Virus record (IMG/VR): IMGVR_UViG_3300037187_000003
Location: 7,418 to 71,417 of that record
Reading direction: 5' to 3' (one strand)
DNA length: 64,000 nt
Source of the DNA: a virus
The position numbers were made by a program, and so were the translations under genes. The notes beneath the pieces are model-generated. The model did not search any database. It saw only the letters and a list, made by a program, of their open reading frames with translations, and was not told the DNA's origin. Below are positions 5,809 to 53,076 of the stretch, piece by piece; position 1 is the stretch's first letter, and each line of letters starts with the position of its first letter.

Positions 5809-6404
5809 GTGGGTTCTCCCGTAGTGACTTCGTGGCCTACCGCGCGCCACATATCTCCGGTGTCGATAAGCGGCTTCGCAAATTTTTTCCGGCGGATCGT
5901 GCTCGCAGCCAGCGGCGGATCGGTCAGCGTCTTGATCGATTCGACAAGCTGGCCAGCAATCGCGGCGCCGACAACATCGAGAGCGGCCGGGCCGTCATAG
6001 TCCTTTGCCTTCAACTGCGTAGCGATGCCCGCTGGCCACTCATGGCTCTTCGCTGCGATCATCCGACGAAAGAACGGACGCGGCGGGATGGTGATGGTAT
6101 AGGACCCGTGCGCGTGTGTGCTGGTGAAGTTGGCCTTGGCCTTCTTCACAAACTGTCCGCCGCGCAGAAACTTGCCGCTCGCGCTTTTCTTTCGATAGAT
6201 CGTCACAGACCCAGCTTGGCGCTGGATCGTCGCGCCGAACTCCTGGATTGCGGCGATGTATGCGACGGGGGTTCCGTCTGGGTATGTCTTGCCAGACAAG
6301 AAGCCGACGCGAACGGTAGGTCCTCCGGTAGTCGCGCCGACGTTTCCCGCGATCTTTGCCAGATAGGCTTGCAGCTTGTCGCCTCCGCTGATCGCGTCAG
6401 CCAT
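5805..6404 (-). CDS. neck / tail-completion protein (HK97 gp10-like)
   Basis: VRVGFL, AAIQEFG, IPPRPFFR and KPLIDTGDM motifs; start placed at MADAISGG. Confidence 0.75.
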   Translation of the reverse strand: MADAISGGDKLQAYLAKIAGNVGATTGGPTVRVGFLSGKTYPDGTPVAYIAAIQEFGATIQRQAGSVTIYRKKSASGKFLRGGQFVKKAKANFTSTHAHGSYTITIPPRPFFRRMIAAKSHEWPAGIATQLKAKDYDGPAALDVVGAAIAGQLVESIKTLTDPPLAASTIRRKKFAKPLIDTGDMWRAVGHEVTTGEPT

Positions 6405-12411: not shown

Positions 12412-13226
12412 TAGCTAAAGCCTTCCACGATTGGTTTGCTATTGCAACGGCAATTTATGAGTGACCCGGGCCAGACGAATTTCTGTTCCGCCGGATCGAA
12501 CCACCCTTTTGCGATCTCATACGGCTTTCCATCATTCGCGAGATGCGTGGGCCGCGGTTCTTTACCGGCGGTCGAGTGCAGCCACAACGCATGGGTGATC
12601 CCTAGCTCTGTCTGTCGCACCCGAGTCGTGATAGCGAACGCCTTGTTCGTTTGGTCGCGCGCTATAATTGTCGCCCGCCGCCGCGTCACCCCAAACTGCG
12701 ATTCGATCTCCTTGACCATCATCCCGAGATCGCCGCCAACCTGCACGCCGCGCATTACGATGCCTTGCACTTGCGTCAAGTACTGGGCCGGGATCGACTT
12801 AATCAGCGCGATGTTCTCTCCAATCGAACCCTGCAACGCCTGATTCGCCGCCTCGGTCATGCGGAACTTCACAGTCCATCCGCCGCGTTTCAAGATCGAC
12901 TGAAACGCCCCGTCCGCGCGCCGCTGTGCCGACGTTGCGAAGTGTCGCGCCAGTTCCTCTGCCATCGTGTCGAAGCGTTTCCGCCACTGCGCGCCGAGAT
13001 CATCGAACGTGCCGCGCATGCCCATCGCAGGGGAGTCGTTGTCCTGCGCCAGCGATACGGGCGGGTTGCGACGGTATTGCGCGCGAACCCAGTAGAGCAC
13101 CGAGGCGTTCATTGCCGCGATCTCGGCGTCCAGGCGCTTGTGGTAGGCCGCTTCAATCCCCGCATTGGGGCGAACGGGCGGAAGGATGCGCCGCTTGCCC
13201 GTGGGGGAGATAAGCTTGACTGTCAT
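12411..13226 (-). CDS. phage head morphogenesis protein (MuF/SPP1 gp7-like)
   Basis: ENIALIKSI, IARDQTNK, WLHS, RPTH and PGSLINCRC motifs. Confidence 0.88.
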   Translation of the reverse strand: MTVKLISPTGKRRILPPVRPNAGIEAAYHKRLDAEIAAMNASVLYWVRAQYRRNPPVSLAQDNDSPAMGMRGTFDDLGAQWRKRFDTMAEELARHFATSAQRRADGAFQSILKRGGWTVKFRMTEAANQALQGSIGENIALIKSIPAQYLTQVQGIVMRGVQVGGDLGMMVKEIESQFGVTRRRATIIARDQTNKAFAITTRVRQTELGITHALWLHSTAGKEPRPTHLANDGKPYEIAKGWFDPAEQKFVWPGSLINCRCNSKPIVEGFS

Positions 13227-16131: not shown

Positions 16132-17634
16132 CTACCGGCGCACCCCGGCGCGAGCCAGGAGCGAGGGGGCGATCTGGATCGGCGGTCGGTTCATGCCGAC
16201 CACCTCGAACGCTCCGGATAGCCCGTCAACCTGATCGTCATGCCCACCGGCCGGGAACGATGCCAATTCATCCCGTAGCGCTGCATTCCACGACGCCTTG
16301 ACCATCGCCACGTTGCCGACGTTCACCTGGCTTGCGACCGGCGCGGCGCGGGTTGCCTTGTCGCCCGTCTCACGCTGCGACTGCACCTGATAGCCAGCCA
16401 GTTTCCGGGTATAGTAAAGCACTTGATGCTTGCCGGCCTGCCCAGGGTCTTCCGATAGCCTGATCTGCACCGCGCGCCCGTCTTGCGTTGCTGTGTTCAC
16501 AACAGCCGCCTCGATTTCGTCAGGGCCGCCGCGCAACCTCACCACATCGATGATGATGTAACGTCCCTCTTTCGTGCGACCCAACTTCAGTCCGACCGTC
16601 CAGTCCGGGTTGTTCGTGCCCATCTGTTTCGTCGCGGCCATGTCCCAGGATCGGACGATACTGACGCAAACGGGGGCGGCGTCGAGGACTTCGATCAGGA
16701 AAGGCTTGAAGAGCGCGCCTTCGTTAGGGCGTGGGCGCTGTTGGTAGAGAGCGGCCCATTCTCGCTCGCCAGTTTCAATCCTGGTCCCGGCCAGCATCTC
16801 GGCCGAAAAACGCTCTGGCCAAAGCGCTTCTCCAGGCGCCCGACCCATTTGGTCATTGTCTTCGGCAATGGCCGGAAGATTAGCAATCCGCCACTGCGTT
16901 CCGCCCGTAGCTGCGGCATCCAGCAGCCTTCCAGCCAAATCGTCTTCGTGCCATCGAGTCTGAATTAAAATCAATCGAGCGCCTGGATTTAGGCGAGTAA
17001 TTACTTCTGCCCGATACCAGTTCCAGACGGTATCGCGGATGGCCGGGCTATCAGCATCCTTGCGACCTCGGATTGGATCGTCAATGATGAAAAGATCGGC
17101 GCGGCGGCCGGTTATGGACCCTCCCGCACCAGCCGCCCGGTAGACTCCACCTGTCGTGGTGCGCCATAGACTCGATGACTCATTCCGAAGTCCATAACCA
17201 AGCGTTTCGCTATTCTGCTGGATGTAGCTGATAACTCTTCCACTGAGGTCTTCGGCATATTCGCTGGCATGACTGGCTCCGATGACGTGTTGATTGGGAG
17301 CCAGACCCAGAAACCATGCCGCGAACAAGATTGAGGCGTACGTGGTCTTCGCGCTGTTCGGCGGCATGAAAACCATCAATCGCGTCGTCTCGCCGCGCGC
17401 CACAGCCTCTAATTCGCGGATCAAAAACCGATGGTGCCGGGCCGGGGTTTGGTCGAGAGGCGCAAGTGCCTCAATGCACCACGCCGTGAGGCTCCTCCGG
17501 CAATCGCGGCGCCAGAGTTCCCGCTCTATCTCCAATTCCCTCAGAGCCAACGATCTCAATTCGTCGGCGGGAGATTTCCTCGCGCTCGGCCCGTAGAGCG
17601 GCCTCGTCACGCTGACTGTCATCGGTGCGGACAT
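16132..17634 (-). CDS. terL: terminase large subunit
   Basis: RLMVFMPPNSAKT, ITGRRADLFIIDDP, QTRWHEDDLAG, RSWDMA and HDDQVD motifs; exact start uncertain. Confidence 0.95.
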   Translation of the reverse strand: MSAPMTVSVTRPLYGPSARKSPADELRSLALRELEIERELWRRDCRRSLTAWCIEALAPLDQTPARHHRFLIRELEAVARGETTRLMVFMPPNSAKTTYASILFAAWFLGLAPNQHVIGASHASEYAEDLSGRVISYIQQNSETLGYGLRNESSSLWRTTTGGVYRAAGAGGSITGRRADLFIIDDPIRGRKDADSPAIRDTVWNWYRAEVITRLNPGARLILIQTRWHEDDLAGRLLDAAATGGTQWRIANLPAIAEDNDQMGRAPGEALWPERFSAEMLAGTRIETGEREWAALYQQRPRPNEGALFKPFLIEVLDAAPVCVSIVRSWDMAATKQMGTNNPDWTVGLKLGRTKEGRYIIIDVVRLRGGPDEIEAAVVNTATQDGRAVQIRLSEDPGQAGKHQVLYYTRKLAGYQVQSQRETGDKATRAAPVASQVNVGNVAMVKASWNAALRDELASFPAGGHDDQVDGLSGAFEVVGMNRPPIQIAPSLLARAGVRR

Positions 17635-29830: not shown

Positions 29831-31101
29831 ACCGCGTCCTGCGTGATATCCGCGAACATGCCGGCGTCCTTCACGATGCGGCGTTCGATCATGGCGCAAT
29901 AATCCTGGTTCAATTCGATGCCGACGGAGTCGCGCCCGAGGCGGTCGGCAACCATCAAAGTCGTGCCTGCTCCCGCGAAACAGTCCAGCGCGACGCATGG
30001 CACCGGGTCGGCTGGCGGGCAGGCGCACGACTGGCGCCACGCGCTGATCCGCTCCCGCATCCCGGAGAGGATGCGCGCCTTGACCGCGCTGGCGTCCTGT
30101 ACGCCCGCTGCGGCGTGGCCCTTGCTGGACTGGCCGTTGTAGCCCCCATTTGCATCGGCGCCGCACGCGGCCTTGTGGGCTTCGTCTGGTGCGCCTTTTG
30201 TGACGATCCGGACATGCGGTGCGCCGCAGTGGGGACAGGCGCCACGTTCGGATGTGGCGGCGCGGATCAATGGCTCAATCAGGCGAGGAGGGAAGCTGGC
30301 GAAGTGGGCTTCGGCCAGAGGCATCGGGTTCACGTCGAGCGCCAGTGGATTGCCGTCGTTGTCTGCGATCAGGCCGTGAGGGGCGTTGAGGCTTTCGAGG
30401 AACAAGTCCGAGTTGCGGAAGTTGCGCTTAGTCACAAGCGCCCGGAACGATTCTTCCCTGGCTGCCTTAGTCGCATTCTTGCCTTTGAAAAATCCCTTGG
30501 CACGTTCTGGATGCGATCCACCAGGAGGATAAGCCGCCGGTCTCCGAATATCTTCGGCATCCCAAAAATATTGCTCCTGCTTCGTCAGCAGATAGACATA
30601 TTCAACCGCCGAACTCGGCCGATCCGTCACGCTCTCCGGCATACATGACCGCTTGATCCACGGCATTTGTGACCGCAGCCACCAGCCGTCCGCTTGCAGC
30701 GCCATCGCTACGCGGGCCGGTATCATAACCAAGTCTTTCGGCTTCCCGTCAAAGCGCCCGACATTCGGCGATACGCCAGCCTGCTTCCACCCGGCTTCCG
30801 AGTGCATCGACCTTGGCGCGTTGTAGGTTGACGACGAGGCATAGGAGTCGCCCAAGTTTACAAGCAAAATGCCGTCGTCACGCAGCACGCGTTTCACTTC
30901 CCGGAATACAGCAACCAATGCGCCGATGTAACTCGTTGCCAGCAATTCATTGCCGATTTCCTTCTCGGCGTCAGGGTGGCCCTCCGGCAAATAGCGACGT
31001 AACCCTCGGTATGGAGGGCTGGTGATACAGCATTGCACGCTATTCGGCGCAAGCGTCCGGAGCACCGCAAGCGCGTCGCCTTGCAGGACCCGGATCGTCA
31101 C
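29827..31101 (-). CDS. N4-C/N6-A DNA methyltransferase (beta class)
   Basis: TSPPY, VNLGDSY, HFASFP and LDCFAGAGTT motifs; Cys-containing insert. Confidence 0.92.
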   Translation of the reverse strand: MTIRVLQGDALAVLRTLAPNSVQCCITSPPYRGLRRYLPEGHPDAEKEIGNELLATSYIGALVAVFREVKRVLRDDGILLVNLGDSYASSSTYNAPRSMHSEAGWKQAGVSPNVGRFDGKPKDLVMIPARVAMALQADGWWLRSQMPWIKRSCMPESVTDRPSSAVEYVYLLTKQEQYFWDAEDIRRPAAYPPGGSHPERAKGFFKGKNATKAAREESFRALVTKRNFRNSDLFLESLNAPHGLIADNDGNPLALDVNPMPLAEAHFASFPPRLIEPLIRAATSERGACPHCGAPHVRIVTKGAPDEAHKAACGADANGGYNGQSSKGHAAAGVQDASAVKARILSGMRERISAWRQSCACPPADPVPCVALDCFAGAGTTLMVADRLGRDSVGIELNQDYCAMIERRIVKDAGMFADITQDAV

Positions 31102-45707: not shown

Positions 45708-45931
45708 GCGAACTCACTCCGATCGTAGTGTCGCCAGCAAAGTGGCTTAACGGGCGTATCGTTGGCGTCACGCCATTCGCCGCCCCAGAAGGAAACGTAG
45801 CAGTCGCTCGCCTCTCCCTCGATGCACGCCAGAACGCAGGAGTTCTCCTCGGTCGGCGCTTTGTCCATCAGTTGCCAGCCACGGAGTGTGCCCGTCGCAT
45901 TGGCTGGCGGGGTTGTGAGCGTATCGCTCAC
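45704..45931 (-). CDS. DUF551-like protein
   Basis: AGGA RBS and GTG start; WQLMDKAP...PLCW. Confidence 0.55.
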   Translation of the reverse strand: MSDTLTTPPANATGTLRGWQLMDKAPTEENSCVLACIEGEASDCYVSFWGGEWRDANDTPVKPLCWRHYDRSEFA

Positions 45932-46156: not shown

Positions 46157-46233
46157 GCCTGATTAGCTCAGTTGGATAGAGCGCCGCGCTTCGGACGCGG
46201 AGGGCGCACGTTCGAGTCGTGCATTGGGCACCA
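46157..46233 (+). tRNA. tRNA-Arg(UCG)
   Basis: Full cloverleaf: acceptor GCCTGAT/ATTGGGC; D-arm GCTC/GAGC with A20; anticodon arm CCGCG-CTTCGGA-CGCGG; T-arm GCACG-TTCGAGT-CGTGC; encoded CCA. Confidence 0.93.
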
Positions 46234-47939: not shown

Positions 47940-48091
47940 GCTGCGGCTGCTACAGCAGACGGCGGGAACCCGGTGCGCAGATCGGTCCGCCCTGGACGGA
48001 AATCGTTGCTGCGACGCACGATACTACCTCTCCGCAGTTTATCACGTTCCCCGACAAGCGGCGACCCGGCTCCGGCTGGGCCGCCGCTCTT
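47940..48091 (+). ncRNA. candidate small structured RNA
   Basis: Preceded by TTGACG-N17-GATGGT. Crossing helices 47941-46/48032-37 and 47964-69/48046-51; terminal cUCCGg hairpin at 48057-48088. Confidence 0.4.
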
Positions 48092-48129
48092 GCGGAACGG
48101 CGTGGACAAATATACATTCCACGAACTGA

Positions 48130-48205
48130 TGCGGCTGTAGAGGACCGGCACCTCGGGAGTCTCATAAACTCCAAATAGCGGGTTCGATTCCCGCCGCCGC
48201 TACCA
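48130..48205 (+). tRNA. tRNA-Met(CAU), initiator-like but atypical
   Basis: D-stem GAGG/CCTC; anticodon arm GGAGT-CTCATAA-ACTCC; T-arm GCGGG-TTCGATT-CCCGC; ends ACCA. The acceptor stem has a 1:72 mismatch and one bulge. Confidence 0.85.
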
Positions 48206-48207
48206 AT

Positions 48208-48549
48208 CCAGCCACCCCGCCTCACCACGTTGCGGACTGACGAGCCGGACCTTGCGAACCGGCGTGGGAGGGTGGTATTACCGCCTCGCCGTGAGGACGC
48301 TCACAGCCGCCAGTTATCTGCCGGTCCGGACCGGACGCTGGCGATTATCGCGAAAGTCGGGAGCGCGGCACATTGCGCGCCGGGACTACGGTCCCGCCCG
48401 ACGGCGCGGTGTGGCAACCTGGCCGGAGTTTCTGTTTGCAACCCCACGAGTTGGGTGGCATAGTCGCCGGGCTGCGGCGGTAAACTGGCGATGTACGGGA
48501 TGAACCGAAACACGTAGTCCGCGACCAGAGAAGCGACGCGGGTGGCTGG
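48208..48549 (+). ncRNA. candidate large structured ncRNA (about 340 nt)
   Basis: Nested long-range helices 48208-20/48538-49, 48229-38/48516-25 and 48278-85/48476-83. Local GGGAC-UACG-GUCCC hairpin; no convincing ORF. Confidence 0.6.
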
Positions 48550-48650
48550 TATAAGTGGTGCATAGCACAGGAGCGATGGACGGGGCGGGAATCGCACGAG
48601 CCGGTGTCCAATACCTAAACGAAAACCGCGGCATCTTGGTCCCGCGCAGC

Positions 48651-48695
48651 ACAGAACGGCCCCAGGCGCCTCGCGCTTGAGGGCCGTTTCTGTTT
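48651..48695 (+). terminator. rho-independent terminator between convergent units
   Basis: Long hairpin ACAGAACGGCCC...GGGCCGTTTCTGT followed by T residues. Confidence 0.7.
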
Positions 48696-48698
48696 GGC

Positions 48699-48884
48699 CT
48701 ACCAGCGATGGTAGCCGAAGCCGCCGCCCAGACCTCCGAACAAAACGGCCAATACCAAAATCAGCACCAGCAATCCAACGATGCCGCCCATGCCGTTGTA
48801 GTTGCCCCCCGGCCCGACCCAGCCGGAGCGGTAGCCCCAGCCTCCTCCGCAGAGCAAAAGTATGAGGATTATGAGCAGGAGCAC
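48699..48884 (-). CDS. DUF3309-like small membrane protein
   Basis: LLLIILILLL.GGGWGY...GGIVGLLVLIL. Confidence 0.7.
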   Translation of the reverse strand: MLLLIILILLLCGGGWGYRSGWVGPGGNYNGMGGIVGLLVLILVLAVLFGGLGGGFGYHRW

Positions 48885-48905
48885 AGCACGCCTCCCTTGC
48901 CGGGG

Positions 48906-49226
48906 TTACGGTGCGGCTGCGACAGCCGCCGCCAACGCCGGTGTGCTGGCGACCAGCGAGGCGTTCAGCGCGGCGAACGCGGCAAGCTGGGCAGGCGTGG
49001 CGCCCGCTGCCGTGGCCGCGTTGACCGCCGCGGTAATGAGCGCGGGAATGCCCTGGATCAGCACGATCGCGGACGCTTCGCCGGCCTGGGCAGCCGCCAC
49101 GTTGGTTTGCAGCGCGGCAAGTTCGGCGGCGACGGTATCGACGGTTGCGGACATGGCGGCGAGGTCCTTCCTGATGGCGGCAAGCGTCGCCTGGATGGAA
49201 GCGAGGGCGGCGCGGGTTCCGAACAT
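48906..49226 (-). CDS. Ala-rich helical hypothetical protein
   Basis: SAIVLIQGI and LAAAVAA motifs. Confidence 0.65.
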   Translation of the reverse strand: MFGTRAALASIQATLAAIRKDLAAMSATVDTVAAELAALQTNVAAAQAGEASAIVLIQGIPALITAAVNAATAAGATPAQLAAFAALNASLVASTPALAAAVAAAP

Positions 49227-49384
49227 GGCCTGTATATGGTCATGCCTCGCCGGATTGCTACGAGGTCGGCCCGGCCCTCAATCGCTGAAGGATTTTGGGA
49301 CAACACCACCGACATGCTGGCTGGACTCCGGAAATCAGCCCCGAATTATGCGTGATTTTATGCGGCGCGATATGTAATATACCG

Positions 49385-49413
49385 TTGCATAGTGCGGGGA
49401 TGCGAGATATATC
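49385..49413 (+). promoter_or_regulatory. putative promoter of the RAMP cassette
   Basis: TTGCAT-N17-TATATC in an AT-rich intergenic region; TTATGCG occurs twice just upstream. Confidence 0.5.
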
Positions 49414-49445
49414 TAGCGGCACCAATATCTGCACGAGGTGCTAGG

Positions 49446-49691
49446 ATGGAGCCTGTGGAAGTTACCAGGAGACCCCGGCGCAAGTTGGAATATGTCCCCG
49501 ACGATCCGCTTTTGACGGCCGCCGAGACGGCCGCCGAACGCGGCCAAGCAGTCAGTACATTCTGGCGCGATGTGAAGGCAGGACGCCTTCCGCCGGCCTA
49601 TTATGTGTCGCCCCGGTGTCCACGGTGGCGCCGTTCGGAAGTCTTGGCCGGGATAGAGGCGACCCGCGCAGCGCCTGTTGCACAGAGGTAG
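49446..49691 (+). CDS. AlpA/excisionase-like HTH regulator
   Basis: GAGG RBS; LLTAAETA...VSTFWRDVKAGRLPP...RWRRSEV. Confidence 0.8.
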   Translation: MEPVEVTRRPRRKLEYVPDDPLLTAAETAAERGQAVSTFWRDVKAGRLPPAYYVSPRCPRWRRSEVLAGIEATRAAPVAQR

Positions 49692-49693
49692 AA

Positions 49694-50368
49694 ATGGCCC
49701 GCACTCCTAAGCCACTTACCGAAGCCCCCGCCGAGCAGATCACCATCAAACCGCCCAATATCAGGTCTCTTGAGATCGGGATTATCGGGATTGCCCCGCT
49801 GATGATTTGTCGGTTCAGCGCAAAGGCGATGGAACAGATGATGGCTACCCATCAAGCGGGTTCCACGGGCCGCACGAAGAAAGTGCGGGTAGCTCGCGAC
49901 TTCGATGCCGACTTCAACGGAGCGCGACATATCGCTGCCGATGGCTGGGATGGCATCCATGCTGCGGCGTTTCGCAATGGCATGATTTCGGCGTGCCGTC
50001 TGGTCGGCTTCAAGATGACGATCGCCAAACTGTCGGTTTTCGTTGACCCGGATGGTTTCGACGTGGTGGACGGCGTGCCTCTGGTCCGGATCATCAGCGA
50101 CAGCGCTCCGGCGAAGCGCATCATGCACACGCGCAACGCGACCGGCGTCATCGACCTTCGGGCGCGGCCAGCGTGGGATAAATGGTCCTGCAATCTCCGC
50201 ATCAACTATGATGCGGATCAGTTCACGGCGACGGATGTCGTCAATCTGCTTTCCCGCGTCGGCGCACAAGTCGGCGTTGGGGAGGGGCGGCCAGATAGCC
50301 GCTCAAGTGCCGGGATGGGGTTTGGTATGTTCCGGCTGGCTACCGCCGTCGATGAGGCGGCGGCGTGA
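49694..50368 (+). CDS. solo RAMP/Cas7-like RNA-binding protein (Vipr-like)
   Basis: N-terminal strand IGIIGIAPLMI; helix GIHAAAFRNGMISA (compare Cas7/Csm3 IPGSSLKGALR); C-terminal Gly-rich loop GVGEGRPDSRSSAGMGFGMF. The repeat array starts at the next base after its stop codon. Confidence 0.8.
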   Translation: MARTPKPLTEAPAEQITIKPPNIRSLEIGIIGIAPLMICRFSAKAMEQMMATHQAGSTGRTKKVRVARDFDADFNGARHIAADGWDGIHAAAFRNGMISACRLVGFKMTIAKLSVFVDPDGFDVVDGVPLVRIISDSAPAKRIMHTRNATGVIDLRARPAWDKWSCNLRINYDADQFTATDVVNLLSRVGAQVGVGEGRPDSRSSAGMGFGMFRLATAVDEAAA

Positions 50369-50618
50369 GGCAGGCGGCGTGGGGTTATGCGTCGTTCGGC
50401 GCCGCACCGCACGCATCGGCACGGCAGGCAAGCCACGACATCGGAGGGCACCATCTGGCCTGGCTCGGCAGGCGTCGCTTCGATTCGCGTCGCACGTCGC
50501 GGAGGGGCGTGGCAGGCGTGGCTTCGGATCGCGGCGCACGGAACGCCAACGCTCGGCAGGCTGCGCTTGGCAACGGACAGCGTTGCCCGGCGTGGCGTGG
50601 CTCGCTGCGGAATAGCAC
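50369..50618 (+). ncRNA. phased pentamer array: 5 units of GGCA + (SGY-NN)x8-12, putative guide RNAs
   Basis: GGCAGGC at 50369, 50423, 50467, 50511 and 50555 (spacing 54, 44, 44, 44, all 4+5n). Of 46 pentamers, position 1 is G/C in 42, position 2 is G in 39, position 3 is C/T in 38; positions 4-5 vary freely. Confidence 0.85.
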
Positions 50619-50623
50619 CAGGA

Positions 50624-50645
50624 GGCGGGAACCGCCGCGAGGCGG
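50624..50645 (+). other. GC-rich hairpin closing the array
   Basis: CCGCC-GCGA-GGCGG with a GNRA loop (50632-50645); alternative fold GGCGG-GAA-CCGCC. Confidence 0.55.
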
Positions 50646-50685
50646 GCAACGTCCATAAGTCCTTCCAATTTACAAGTTATTAAGA

Positions 50686-51327
50686 ATGCTAACTCAGACC
50701 CAGCGTGAACATCTGGAACTGATCCGCGCCTCCGCTGGCGGCACGCTGGCCCCGCAGGATGTGCTAACCGACGCACGCAATCCGAACTCGCCGCTGCACG
50801 ATCTGTTCCTCTGGAACGACAGCGAGGCGGCGGAAGCATATCGGCTGATCCAGGCACGCGAGGTTGTTCGCGTCGTGGTGCGGATGGCTCCGCGCCCCGC
50901 CCAGGAGACGACGCGGGTTGTGGTGAAGCGCGCCGAGCCACGAGCGTCACGCCCAGCCGTAACTGTGGTACCACGAGATCGAGAGGCGGCGACCTTCAAG
51001 GCGATCAGTGAAGGTATTGATCGTCTTGCAGCGGACCACGAAACTCCGCATTGGCAATTATTATTCGCTGAATTTCGCACATTACTGGCGAAACACACCC
51101 CAGCATCTTTGCTGCCTAGAATCCGCAATCGCAAGGATGGCGCATCCAATTATGCCGAAGGCGAGCCGGAGGCTGCTGATCTGGACCGCATCACGGCTTG
51201 GACAAAAGCAAACGCCCCAGACCTAAGATTCCGCGACTGGGAGGATTTGCGCCGGGTGAATGCACGCCGAGAAATGATGGGTTTCCCATGGTTCAAGCGA
51301 CCTTTGGGAAGGGGCGCAAGAACATAG
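50686..51327 (+). CDS. conserved partner protein of the RAMP/array locus
   Basis: GGTLAPQDVLTDARNPNSPLHDLFLWNDSEAAEAYRLIQAR domain, co-oriented directly after the array. Confidence 0.8.
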   Translation: MLTQTQREHLELIRASAGGTLAPQDVLTDARNPNSPLHDLFLWNDSEAAEAYRLIQAREVVRVVVRMAPRPAQETTRVVVKRAEPRASRPAVTVVPRDREAATFKAISEGIDRLAADHETPHWQLLFAEFRTLLAKHTPASLLPRIRNRKDGASNYAEGEPEAADLDRITAWTKANAPDLRFRDWEDLRRVNARREMMGFPWFKRPLGRGART

Positions 51328-51338
51328 GCCGCAGCATG

Positions 51339-51515
51339 TCACCCCACCCGATCCACCCACACCGGCCCGTCGCGCGTCATAGCGCGATCCTGCACCCGAT
51401 CGCACCGCGTGCACCAGCGGAGGTCGCCGTCCTCGATCCAGTCGTGACCATGCGCCCGGCACCACATGGCTTTGCCGGCGCCGGTCAGCATGTCGAGGCA
51501 GTCGGTGAGGGGCAT
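51339..51515 (-). CDS. small zinc-finger protein (DUF1660-like)
   Basis: Hand-translated WCRAHGHDW...WCTRC. Confidence 0.6.
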   Translation of the reverse strand: MPLTDCLDMLTGAGKAMWCRAHGHDWIEDGDLRWCTRCDRVQDRAMTRDGPVWVDRVG

Positions 51516-51516
51516 G

Positions 51517-51966
51517 TCAAGGCGTCGCCTCTGTCGCCGCGATCAGTTCCTCCGTCGCCCGGTCGCTCTCTGCCGCAGCGCGCCGTAACTCCTCTTTCGC
51601 CGCCGCCGTTGGATGGCCGTCCATAGCCGCCAGCGCCCGCTCGGCCAGCAACACCCGCCGCACCGCAGCACGCGCGGCAAGATCGGCCTGGTGGATGCGG
51701 TTCACGGACGCTGCGGTCGCCGTCCCGTTCGCCACGGTCGCGTTGATCGCGGGCACCTCGCCACGCTCGGCCTTGTCATAGGCGCGCGTCGCCGTGGTGG
51801 TGGCCTGGGATGGTATGTGCGCGGTCGGCTCGGGGGCTGGCGCTGGCTCCGGCGGATCGGCCCGCATCAGGTGCGCGGGAGGCGGCAGCGCCGTGTGCGG
51901 GGGCGTGGCGGGGGTGCAGGAGGCCAGGGCGAAGATCAAGGCGGACAGGTTGAGTGGTGCTCTCAT
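51517..51966 (-). CDS. lipoprotein, possible o-spanin
   Basis: Lipobox LASC, Pro-rich linker and helical tail. Confidence 0.6.
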   Translation of the reverse strand: MRAPLNLSALIFALASCTPATPPHTALPPPAHLMRADPPEPAPAPEPTAHIPSQATTTATRAYDKAERGEVPAINATVANGTATAASVNRIHQADLAARAAVRRVLLAERALAAMDGHPTAAAKEELRRAAAESDRATEELIAATEATP

Positions 51967-52382
51967 CTCACGCCCCCCTTCGGCTGCGACAGCGGCTCCC
52001 GAGCCGTCCGGTCCGCGATGGTCCCGAGGACGGCTTGCAACACCTTTACCTGCGTATTCGCGTCGTTAATTTTCTGTATGATATCCGCCTCGGCATCATG
52101 CTCTTTGTCGCGAAGGTCACCGATCCTTTGCGTGATGTCCGCTTCGGCTTGGCGCGCTTCGGCAGCGACAGTGTTAATCCGACGGTCAACATCCACGATG
52201 TTGCCTTGCAGCACGACGATCTTCCCGGCCGAGTCTGCAATGTCGCGCTGGACCGTCGTCACCTTGGCCGTCGTGGCGATCAGGAACCCGATCGAGCCGA
52301 ATATCAGTGAGCACACGAATATCGTCAGAGCCAGATTGTCCCTGATCCACGCTTTCAGAGGGGATGGCTGACGGTCGCTCAC
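51963..52382 (-). CDS. TM plus coiled-coil protein, possible i-spanin
   Basis: One N-terminal TM helix then heptads; ATGA-coupled to the lipoprotein gene. Confidence 0.55.
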   Translation of the reverse strand: MSDRQPSPLKAWIRDNLALTIFVCSLIFGSIGFLIATTAKVTTVQRDIADSAGKIVVLQGNIVDVDRRINTVAAEARQAEADITQRIGDLRDKEHDAEADIIQKINDANTQVKVLQAVLGTIADRTAREPLSQPKGGVR

Positions 52383-52672
52383 CGCGCCGCCACCCACCAG
52401 CACAGCAGCATCTCCGCCATGGCAACCGCGACGCACACTACGGACAGGAGGCGCGGCGACGGCATCAGTGGTGCCCCACATACATGAACACTGCCGCGAC
52501 CAGGGCGATGGCGAGCATCATCAGGAGGACGGCACGCCATTCCGGTGGCACGGCGGGGTTCTCCGCAGCGGGGATCAGCATCCTACCGCGTCAGGCGCGG
52601 CGGGGCAACGGGATTGCTACAGCCGTTCGACATATGTTGCAATACGCGCAACCTTGTGCTATCCGGTTGCGT

Positions 52673-52879
52673 ATGAAGACAGATGGCATAATAGGCTTCC
52701 GAGCAACGGCCAAACTGCGTAAAGCGCTGGAGACGGACGCAGCGGCCGAGATGCGTACGCTGTCAAACATGATCGTCGTGTTGCTGATGGAAGCGCGGGC
52801 GGCTCGGGCAAGCGCGGAAGCGGTCGAGGCGTTGCGGGTTGCCCGTGGCGCACCGCTGGCGACGCGGGAGGGGGAGTGA
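52673..52879 (+). CDS. Arc-like ribbon-helix-helix protein
   Basis: IGFRATAKLRKALETDAAAEMRTLSNMI. Confidence 0.65.
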   Translation: MKTDGIIGFRATAKLRKALETDAAAEMRTLSNMIVVLLMEARAARASAEAVEALRVARGAPLATREGE

Positions 52880-53076
52880 TGCGCTACGCCGCTATCATTG
52901 GGTGCGCGCTTCTCTACATTTCCGGTAGCATTGGCGCGCGACGCGCTCTCGATGTTGCGGACCCAACGAATAAGGGCGCCCTTAGCCATGTCGTCGCTTC
53001 CTACTTCTGGCCTATTTTGATTACGGCTGAAGTTGTGGAGCGACGCATGTTGTCGCTTCGGACATTGGAGAACTAA
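52876..53076 (+). CDS. small membrane protein
   Basis: Hydrophobic N-terminus and FWP motif. Confidence 0.55.
   Translation: MMRYAAIIGCALLYISGSIGARRALDVADPTNKGALSHVVASYFWPILITAEVVERRMLSLRTLEN

Follow-up and report, generated by a model that had tools for sequence, protein, structure and literature searches.

The segment at positions 50369-50608 of a 64,000-nt window of viral DNA (IMG/VR record IMGVR_UViG_3300037187_000003; full phage record 71,417 bp) is very probably an array of VIPR guide RNAs (vrRNAs). It belongs to a phage from peat soil whose host is probably an alphaproteobacterium. Coordinates are positions in the window unless another contig is named. Five head-to-tail units on the + strand (U1-U5) lie between a gene for a Cas7-like protein of 224 amino acids (aa), here called vipr, and a conserved partner gene. 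The natural targets of two of the guides, U5 and U2, were firmly identified: a tail-fibre-like gene and the start of an HK97-type major capsid gene, both found in one prophage family unrelated to the phage itself.

VIPR, which resembles CRISPR and was first described in 2026, combines a small ancestral RAMP protein (Vipr) with an accessory vap gene and vrRNAs made of GGY-NN pentamers, in which NN are two variable bases (10.64898/2026.04.26.720920). Under its '1-nt skip rule', NN pairs with double-stranded DNA and one target base per unit is skipped, generally the codon wobble base; natural targets are competing phages, satellites and prophages, the loci (664) are sorted into types I-VII with vap1-6, and related scaffold consensus forms besides GGY are reported (10.64898/2026.04.26.720920). 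The reference type II system, that of Escherichia phage SUSP1, consists of Vipr, vap1 and vrRNAs (10.64898/2026.04.26.720920, 10.64898/2026.04.26.720927, 10.64898/2026.10.15.759431). Its mechanism is backed by biochemistry and electron cryomicroscopy (10.64898/2026.04.26.720920, 10.64898/2026.04.26.720927), with one protomer per repeat, the thumb and G-loop holding GGY, and NN presented for pairing (10.64898/2026.04.26.720927). The original prediction, made from the letters of the window alone, had read the variable dinucleotides as codon positions 1 and 2 with the third target base skipped; this is the published 1-nt skip rule, and the mechanism is not new.

Each unit of the array was found to be GGCA followed by eight (U2, U3, U4) or ten (U1, U5) repeats of a G+C-rich triplet alternating with NN (Table 1). 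The NN strings of U2, U3 and U4, read from the sequence, were exactly those of the original prediction. The heptamer GGCAGGC stands at 50369, 50423, 50467, 50511 and 50555 (spacing 54, 44, 44 and 44) and is the sole element common to the units, which are 44 or 54 nt long and at most about 70% alike; the whole window holds 35 copies, against 18.6 +/- 4.1 in shuffles. Scaffold triplets are GGY in 17, SGY in 28 and have a middle G in 37 of the 44 cases. The first base of U1 directly follows the vipr stop codon. A register slip of 1 nt per unit damps the array in a period-5 power scan, in which arrays of related loci are strong. Runs of SGY-NN were sought elsewhere in the phage, and only chance-level runs were obtained.

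Targets were sought with an exact NNx scan, with the NN bases fixed and every third target base free, in IMG/VR and in genome and metagenome contigs. For U5, which specifies 20 bases, 14 exact IMG/VR matches were obtained against about 0.1 expected, an expectation derived from the 18-33 matches of four 16-base patterns. All 14 fall on codons 11-20 (ADTTGTVFNQ) of a single tail-fibre-like gene (phrog_863, PF21722) in contigs with a G+C fraction (GC) of 0.62-0.68. The guide-like sequence is antisense to the gene, the skipped bases are wobble bases, and the site occurs in eight DNA versions that differ only at skipped bases. The match ends exactly after the tenth NN, which fixed the end of U5 at 50608. 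Genome contigs gave 12 further matches, ten in the same tail-fibre-like gene and two in low-GC DNA at chance level. The titles of the metagenome-assembled genomes (MAGs) carrying those ten name Alphaproteobacteria or Acetobacteraceae in nine cases and Actinomycetota in one. One alphaproteobacterial MAG (G011) carries four identical U5 sites (C42:172934, C82:62952, C83:4238 and C84:736); they may be multiple copies of the target prophage or the product of an assembly split.

The 33 exact IMG/VR matches of U2 were divided between the start of an HK97-type capsid gene (12), T4-type regA (11) and others (10). The capsid site covers 6 nt upstream and the first 17 nt (ATG AGC ACA CTG CTG TC) of the major capsid gene; all 12 such matches lie in contigs of GC 0.63-0.67, and PF05065 was confirmed in both of the two scanned. 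The 11 regA matches are near-identical to one another. None of the 33 has an SNF2-like GLGKT context, and the proposal that U2 spells SNF2 helicase motif I was dropped. In a 39.8-kb record chosen for its U2 site, U2 matched at 16/16 and U5 at 20/20 specified bases; not one of 200 permuted guides scored as high for either.

The two sites also occur together, about 24 kb apart, in the MAG prophages G012:C1 and G014:C20 (Table 1), which carry the same three guide sites in mirror order. A third prophage (G013:C171) has the U5 site and, at the homologous capsid start, a U2 site with two mismatches. These prophages show no nucleotide similarity to the window phage and only two weak protein matches each. 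Perfect matches of U5 and U2 on one unrelated prophage family, together with U5 versions that vary only at the skips, bear out the skipped-wobble rule, and the capsid start and tail fibre as targets agree with the proposal that the guides are aimed at essential genes of competing phages. The original prediction had also seen no self-targeting, and no guide reached 80% of its NN bases in the phage's own 71,417-bp record (best U1 15/20, U2 11/16, U3 12/16, U4 12/16, U5 15/20). The central idea of that prediction is thus supported.

The protein encoded directly upstream of the array is identified by sequence comparison and structure prediction as a Vipr homologue with a Cas7 fold. Its likely start is the ATG at 49694, which is preceded by AGAGGTAGAA and from which the N-terminus aligns with homologues. 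A search at E <= 1e-3 returned 4,442 homologues. The 120 listed of these lack Pfam domains, and the only name, borne by a few, is 'hypothetical protein'. A profile of 59 family members matched PDB entry 36pp_D, 'SUSP1 Vipr protein', with E 4e-6 over the thumb and G-loop. In the HMMER alignment, the SUSP1 RNA-contact residues R138 and R179 correspond to the invariant R158 and R199 of this Vipr, and D177 corresponds to E197, which is conserved in at least 90% of the family. An AlphaFold2 (AF2) model of the protein had a pLDDT of 89, and its top Foldseek matches were Csm3, Cmr4 and type VII Cas7 chains (E 1e-5, probability 1.0).

Table 1. Features of the VIPR locus in the window, and guide sites in the three target prophages (sites as matched over specified bases, with the position on the named contig).
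Feature	Position	Strand	Description
vipr gene	49694..50368	+	224-aa Cas7/RAMP-like protein, a Vipr homologue by sequence and model; C-terminal glycine-rich loop GVGEGRPDSRSSAGMGFGMF
U1	50369..50422	+	GGCA + 10 x (triplet-NN); NN = GG GG TA GT TC GC AC AC TC AC
U2	50423..50466	+	GGCA + 8 units; NN = AA AC AT AG AC CT CT TC
U3	50467..50510	+	GGCA + 8 units; NN = GT TT TT GT AC GC GG GT
U4	50511..50554	+	GGCA + 8 units; NN = GT TT AT GG AC AC AA TC
U5	50555..50608	+	GGCA + 10 units; NN = TG TT AA AC GT CC GT GT TC GC
Stretch between U5 and next gene	50609..50685	+	77 nt; pentamer phase decays
vap-like accessory gene	50686..51327	+	213 aa; conserved N-terminal ~70-aa helical domain (LHxxFxWDDxxAAxxxRLxQAR)
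Prophage G012:C1			U5 20/20 at 148856; U2 16/16 at 124453; U3 14/16 at 104159
Prophage G014:C20			U5 20/20 at 51495; U2 16/16 at 75268; U3 14/16 at 97074
Prophage G013:C171			U5 20/20 at 6127; U2 14/16 at 29927; U4 14/16 at 45788; U1 16/20 at 12756

For U4, 25 exact IMG/VR matches were obtained, of which six encode VFIGTTNS in diverged VapE-type primase-helicases, as had been predicted from the decoded string; these are six different DNA versions from contigs of GC 0.40-0.64, and PF05272 was confirmed in all three that were scanned. For U3, five of 18 exact matches encode V[LF][LF]VTAGVD in GpA-type large terminases (three DNA versions; PF20454/PF05876 in both of the two scanned), again in line with the motif first proposed. 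In the prophages that carry U5 and U2 sites, the U4 site of G013 encodes VFIGTTNK in a VapE gene (PF05272), and the U3 site of G012 and G014 encodes VFFVTAGR beside the P-loop of a 704-aa primase/polymerase-like open reading frame (ORF; phrog_19930). The VapE-type motif VFIGTTN(S) is accordingly a plausible target of U4; for U3, either the GpA-type terminase motif VxxVTAGV or VFFVTAG of the primase/polymerase-like gene is plausible. Statistical support for the U3 and U4 targets is moderate. At both prophage sites a mismatch affects the last NN alone; the seven before it match perfectly, in wobble phase. At least 14/16 was reached by 40 (U4) and 89 (U3) of 2000 permuted guides; perfect first seven NN were reached by one (U4) and three (U3) of 2000, with the caveat, which weighs against these two targets, that the 'first 7 NN' criterion was picked after the data had been seen. 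Five more records of the U2/U5 phage group gave a single match to U3, with three mismatches.

It is possible, although we consider it the less probable reading, that the array is a real VIPR array and that the terminase and VapE resemblances of U3 and U4 are a coincidence of short degenerate strings, the true targets being unknown or lost. Several results weigh in this direction and against the guide assignments. A control guide, made of the U4 dinucleotides in reversed order, gave 25 exact matches, against 25 for U4, 33 for U2 and 18 for U3, and it fell in wobble phase in 20 of its 25 matches against 18 of 25 for U4. The excess of matches and the codon-phase bias that had been proposed as checks were thus absent for U4, and because the reversed control gives the same values, raw match counts and codon phase do not discriminate for 16-base guides. 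In five target-host MAGs, U4 had 11 matches with at most two mismatches and U3 had nine, against five and seven for backward-pattern controls. U2 had seven matches against one with at most two mismatches; with at most three, U5 had nine against two and U1 one against eight. A 15/16 match of U4 in MAG G011 falls in an ORF without VapE context; it was rejected as a target, being at chance level, and it indicates that near-matches arise by chance. The VapE proteins with exact U4 sites share only 31-37% identity with the VapE of the G013 prophage, and the exact matches therefore reflect a deeply conserved motif and not one target lineage. A further candidate, a 14/16 match of U3 in wobble phase inside a VapE gene with an exact U4 site (G004; C1:16460-16482, - strand, and 16805-16827, + strand), was also set aside as chance level: 4 of 200 permuted guides equalled the G004 match, which is expected by chance over 25 guide-record tests. 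For U1, no exact NNx match was found in IMG/VR or in metagenome contigs; its best partial match, 16/20 in a baseplate-hub-like gene of the G013 prophage, is not significant. Of U1 and U5, which were first stated to spell no recognisable motif, U5 has the clearest target of all the guides and U1 has none.

Against coincidence stand the diversity of the U4 VapE matches, with six DNA versions across GC 0.40-0.64, whereas the matches of the reversed control form families of near-identical DNA only, all in contigs of GC at most 0.55, the largest with seven matches in two versions; and the finding that U4 and U3 each match seven consecutive NN in phase in a replication gene, and do so in prophages in which the U5 site and a U2 site are present as well. 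In calling targets, weight comes only from the longer guides, from convergence of several guides on one element and from variation confined to skipped bases.

Three further observations count against the assignment of the locus to VIPR. The SUSP1 residue W178, which stacks on G2, aligns with an invariant glycine (G198) in this Vipr. The scaffold is loose, with GGY in only 17 of 44 triplets. The sole RNA datum is one contig from a metatranscriptome library (50186-50443, starting within the 3' end of vipr and reaching into U2), possibly DNA carry-over and at most a weak hint of transcription; stretches that such contigs leave uncovered carry no information. The loose scaffold could mean that the array is a decaying relic, with guides that once functioned and a scaffold that no longer supports Vipr assembly; units with far cleaner GGY triplets in two related loci (L010, L005) and the lack of a target for U1 fit such decay. 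It is nevertheless improbable, given that U5 and U2 are still perfect on their targets and that vipr is intact and confidently modelled (pLDDT 89). The locus is contained in peat and permafrost metagenome runs of several studies, and in three other runs the array differs at a single position, 50493 C>T, the third base of a U3 scaffold triplet (CGC to CGT), a change that keeps a pyrimidine and leaves NN unchanged. Scaffolds also differ by clade, with AGC/AGT and GAC triplets in relatives, and related consensus forms are reported in the preprint.

The array could also be something other than a set of guides: a TRAP-like site, a packaging (pac) site, the repeat of a type III antitoxin RNA, or a small coding gene. 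The layout of a triplet with a 2-nt spacer resembles TRAP sites, and the order of array, hairpin and gene resembles ToxIN. Two ORFs (50365-50658 and 50387-50683) are open across the array, although both products are Arg/Gly/Ala-rich, of low complexity and without family match. The units, only about 70% alike and of variable length, are unlike ToxI repeats; arrays in relatives can also follow the partner gene or flank it, and the partner has no nuclease family match (Pfam, PHROGs). Perfect gapped matches to genes of another phage are expected under none of these ideas, which the U5 and U2 matches already contradict; as a group they are very unlikely. The TRAP-like site, the pac site, a Chi-like decoy and the type III antitoxin were dropped in the light of the VIPR literature and the target matches.

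If the array works as a VIPR guide array, each transcript would, by homology with SUSP1, be coated by Vipr copies at one protomer to a pentamer, each holding the conserved triplet and presenting the two variable bases. NN would pair with the target duplex, every third base of which is flipped out, and a guide of 8 or 10 units would span 23 or 29 bp and read 16 or 20 of those positions, mostly first and second codon bases. The bound guide complex would be expected to block transcription of the target. For this clade we infer transcription, processing at the GGCA joints, assembly of the ribonucleoprotein and silencing; U4, on the VapE primase-helicase, and U3, on a terminase or primase, are likewise inferred to function as guides, whether against these rivals or others.

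The locus resembles the SUSP1 system in that it is phage-borne, encodes a Vipr homologue (matching PDB 36pp) with a predicted Cas7-like fold, has triplet-NN pentamer RNA genes adjoining vipr and a putative accessory gene, and shows no self-target; as in SUSP1, NN strings read with one base skipped match the coding sequences of other mobile elements, in sense or antisense, and the wobble base is the one passed over. It differs in its loose triplets and in the glycine at the Trp position, in the 4-nt GGCA joint at which units abut, the single guides having no invariant 3' tail or pseudoknot that could be recognised, and in its host, here probably a peat alphaproteobacterium. Its guides have 8 or 10 units, compared with the 9-16 of the preprint, and its targets are structural and probably replication genes of prophages, compared with the satellite recombinase or lysogeny regulators given there. 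The loose scaffold, the guides of 8-10 units and the GGCA joints are local features of this member of VIPR. Adjacent guides abut and the register slips by one base per joint, as in the 'staggered' vrRNA arrays of the same source (fig. S18 legend, 10.64898/2026.04.26.720920); the RGCA joint may correspond to the 1-nt overlap described there.

With the class 1 CRISPR backbone proteins (Csm3/Cmr4/Cas7), Vipr shares a predicted fold with an RNA recognition motif core, a G-loop and a thumb (Foldseek E 1e-5), and by analogy it would oligomerise along the guide and flip bases periodically. The period is 5 nt with two paired bases, unlike the 6 nt with five paired bases of class 1 CRISPR, and two in three target bases are read. 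Tandem Repeats Finder detected no CRISPR repeat-spacer array in 48000-53000, and no cas family was found in Pfam or PHROGs among the nine neighbouring ORFs scanned, to which that search was limited. ToxI arrays and TRAP sites are likewise tandem short RNA units upstream of a gene; the units here, however, have diverged and vary in length, no protein resembling ToxN or TRAP is present, and gapped matches to foreign genes would be left unexplained. An Rfam search of 49000-52000 with E up to 10 returned nothing relevant.

Sixteen related IMG/VR loci were fetched by means of the upstream (Vipr) protein. In many of them, arrays beside the vipr homologue follow the grammar RGCA + (RGY-NN)n, with units of 4+5n nt (39-79 nt) and freely varying NN pairs; the first triplet after RGCA is almost always GGC, with a few GGT. 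Twelve, nine and eight units were counted in L010, L011 and L014. The arrays are always co-oriented with vipr, and their place relative to the partner gene varies: some precede it, some follow it and some do both. They flank it in L005 (3665-3800 and 4374-5000), L011 (3590-3680 and 4166-4650) and L012 (3629-3900 and 4434-4650), and lie only after it in L010, L016 and L017. One locus has a pentamer array region of about 1.8 kb between vipr and the partner gene (L008:2560-4400), far longer than that of the window. Scaffold triplets are GGC/GGT/GGA in L005 and L010, AGC/AGT in L011-L014 and GAC/GGC in L006 and L016, and the triplet of each Vipr clade may covary with the sequence of the G-loop. 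When 41 guides from ten related loci were searched in 1.7 Mb of DNA, one match of at least 88% was obtained, against 14 for permuted guides.

The partner gene adjoins vipr and arrays in 11 related loci as well as in the window. Its product matches phrog_15946 (function unknown); no Pfam family and no meaningful PDB sequence match were found, and its AF2 model (pLDDT 65) gave no Foldseek match at E <= 0.001. Downstream, a 171-aa ORF (52364-52879) weakly resembles ribbon-helix-helix proteins (PF07878, E 5e-4, which falls short of the curated cut-off). Upstream of the cassette and on the same strand lie a tRNA-Arg (TCG; 46157-46233) and a tRNA-Met (CAT; 48131-48201).

The predicted fold of the 77-nt stretch between U5 and the partner gene is no stabler than those of shuffles (z 0.76), and 50600-50690 contains no promoter-like site and terminator-like sites only at chance level. 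Within U5, GGCAACG and CGTTGCC (50570-50587) could form a 7-bp hairpin; alternatively, CGTTGCCCG could pair with CGGGCAACG 53 nt downstream (50570-50587 and 50643-50651).

A wider reading is offered tentatively, as one that may well prove wrong. Members of a widespread Vipr clade, whose G-loop is without the guanine-stacking Trp, would for that reason read a relaxed N-G-Y scaffold, with short guides of 8-10 units packed head to tail through a 4-nt RGCA joint and without per-guide tails. The five guides of the window phage would be a panel aimed at a single mosaic prophage family of Alphaproteobacteria in peat, directed at the capsid start, at the tail fibre and, with one guide for each, at the two alternative replication modules (VapE helicase or primase/polymerase-like gene).

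With the array at 50369-50608, VIPR gains an example from the environment and outside the enterobacteria whose natural targets can be assigned on strong statistics. One unrelated prophage family is the common target of two guides, perhaps four, through its capsid, tail-fibre and replication genes, which extends the picture of 'inter-phage warfare' beyond the E. coli and Pseudomonas cases. The loose scaffold and the Trp-to-Gly change together suggest that scaffold specificity is linked to the sequence of the G-loop, a link that can be tested.

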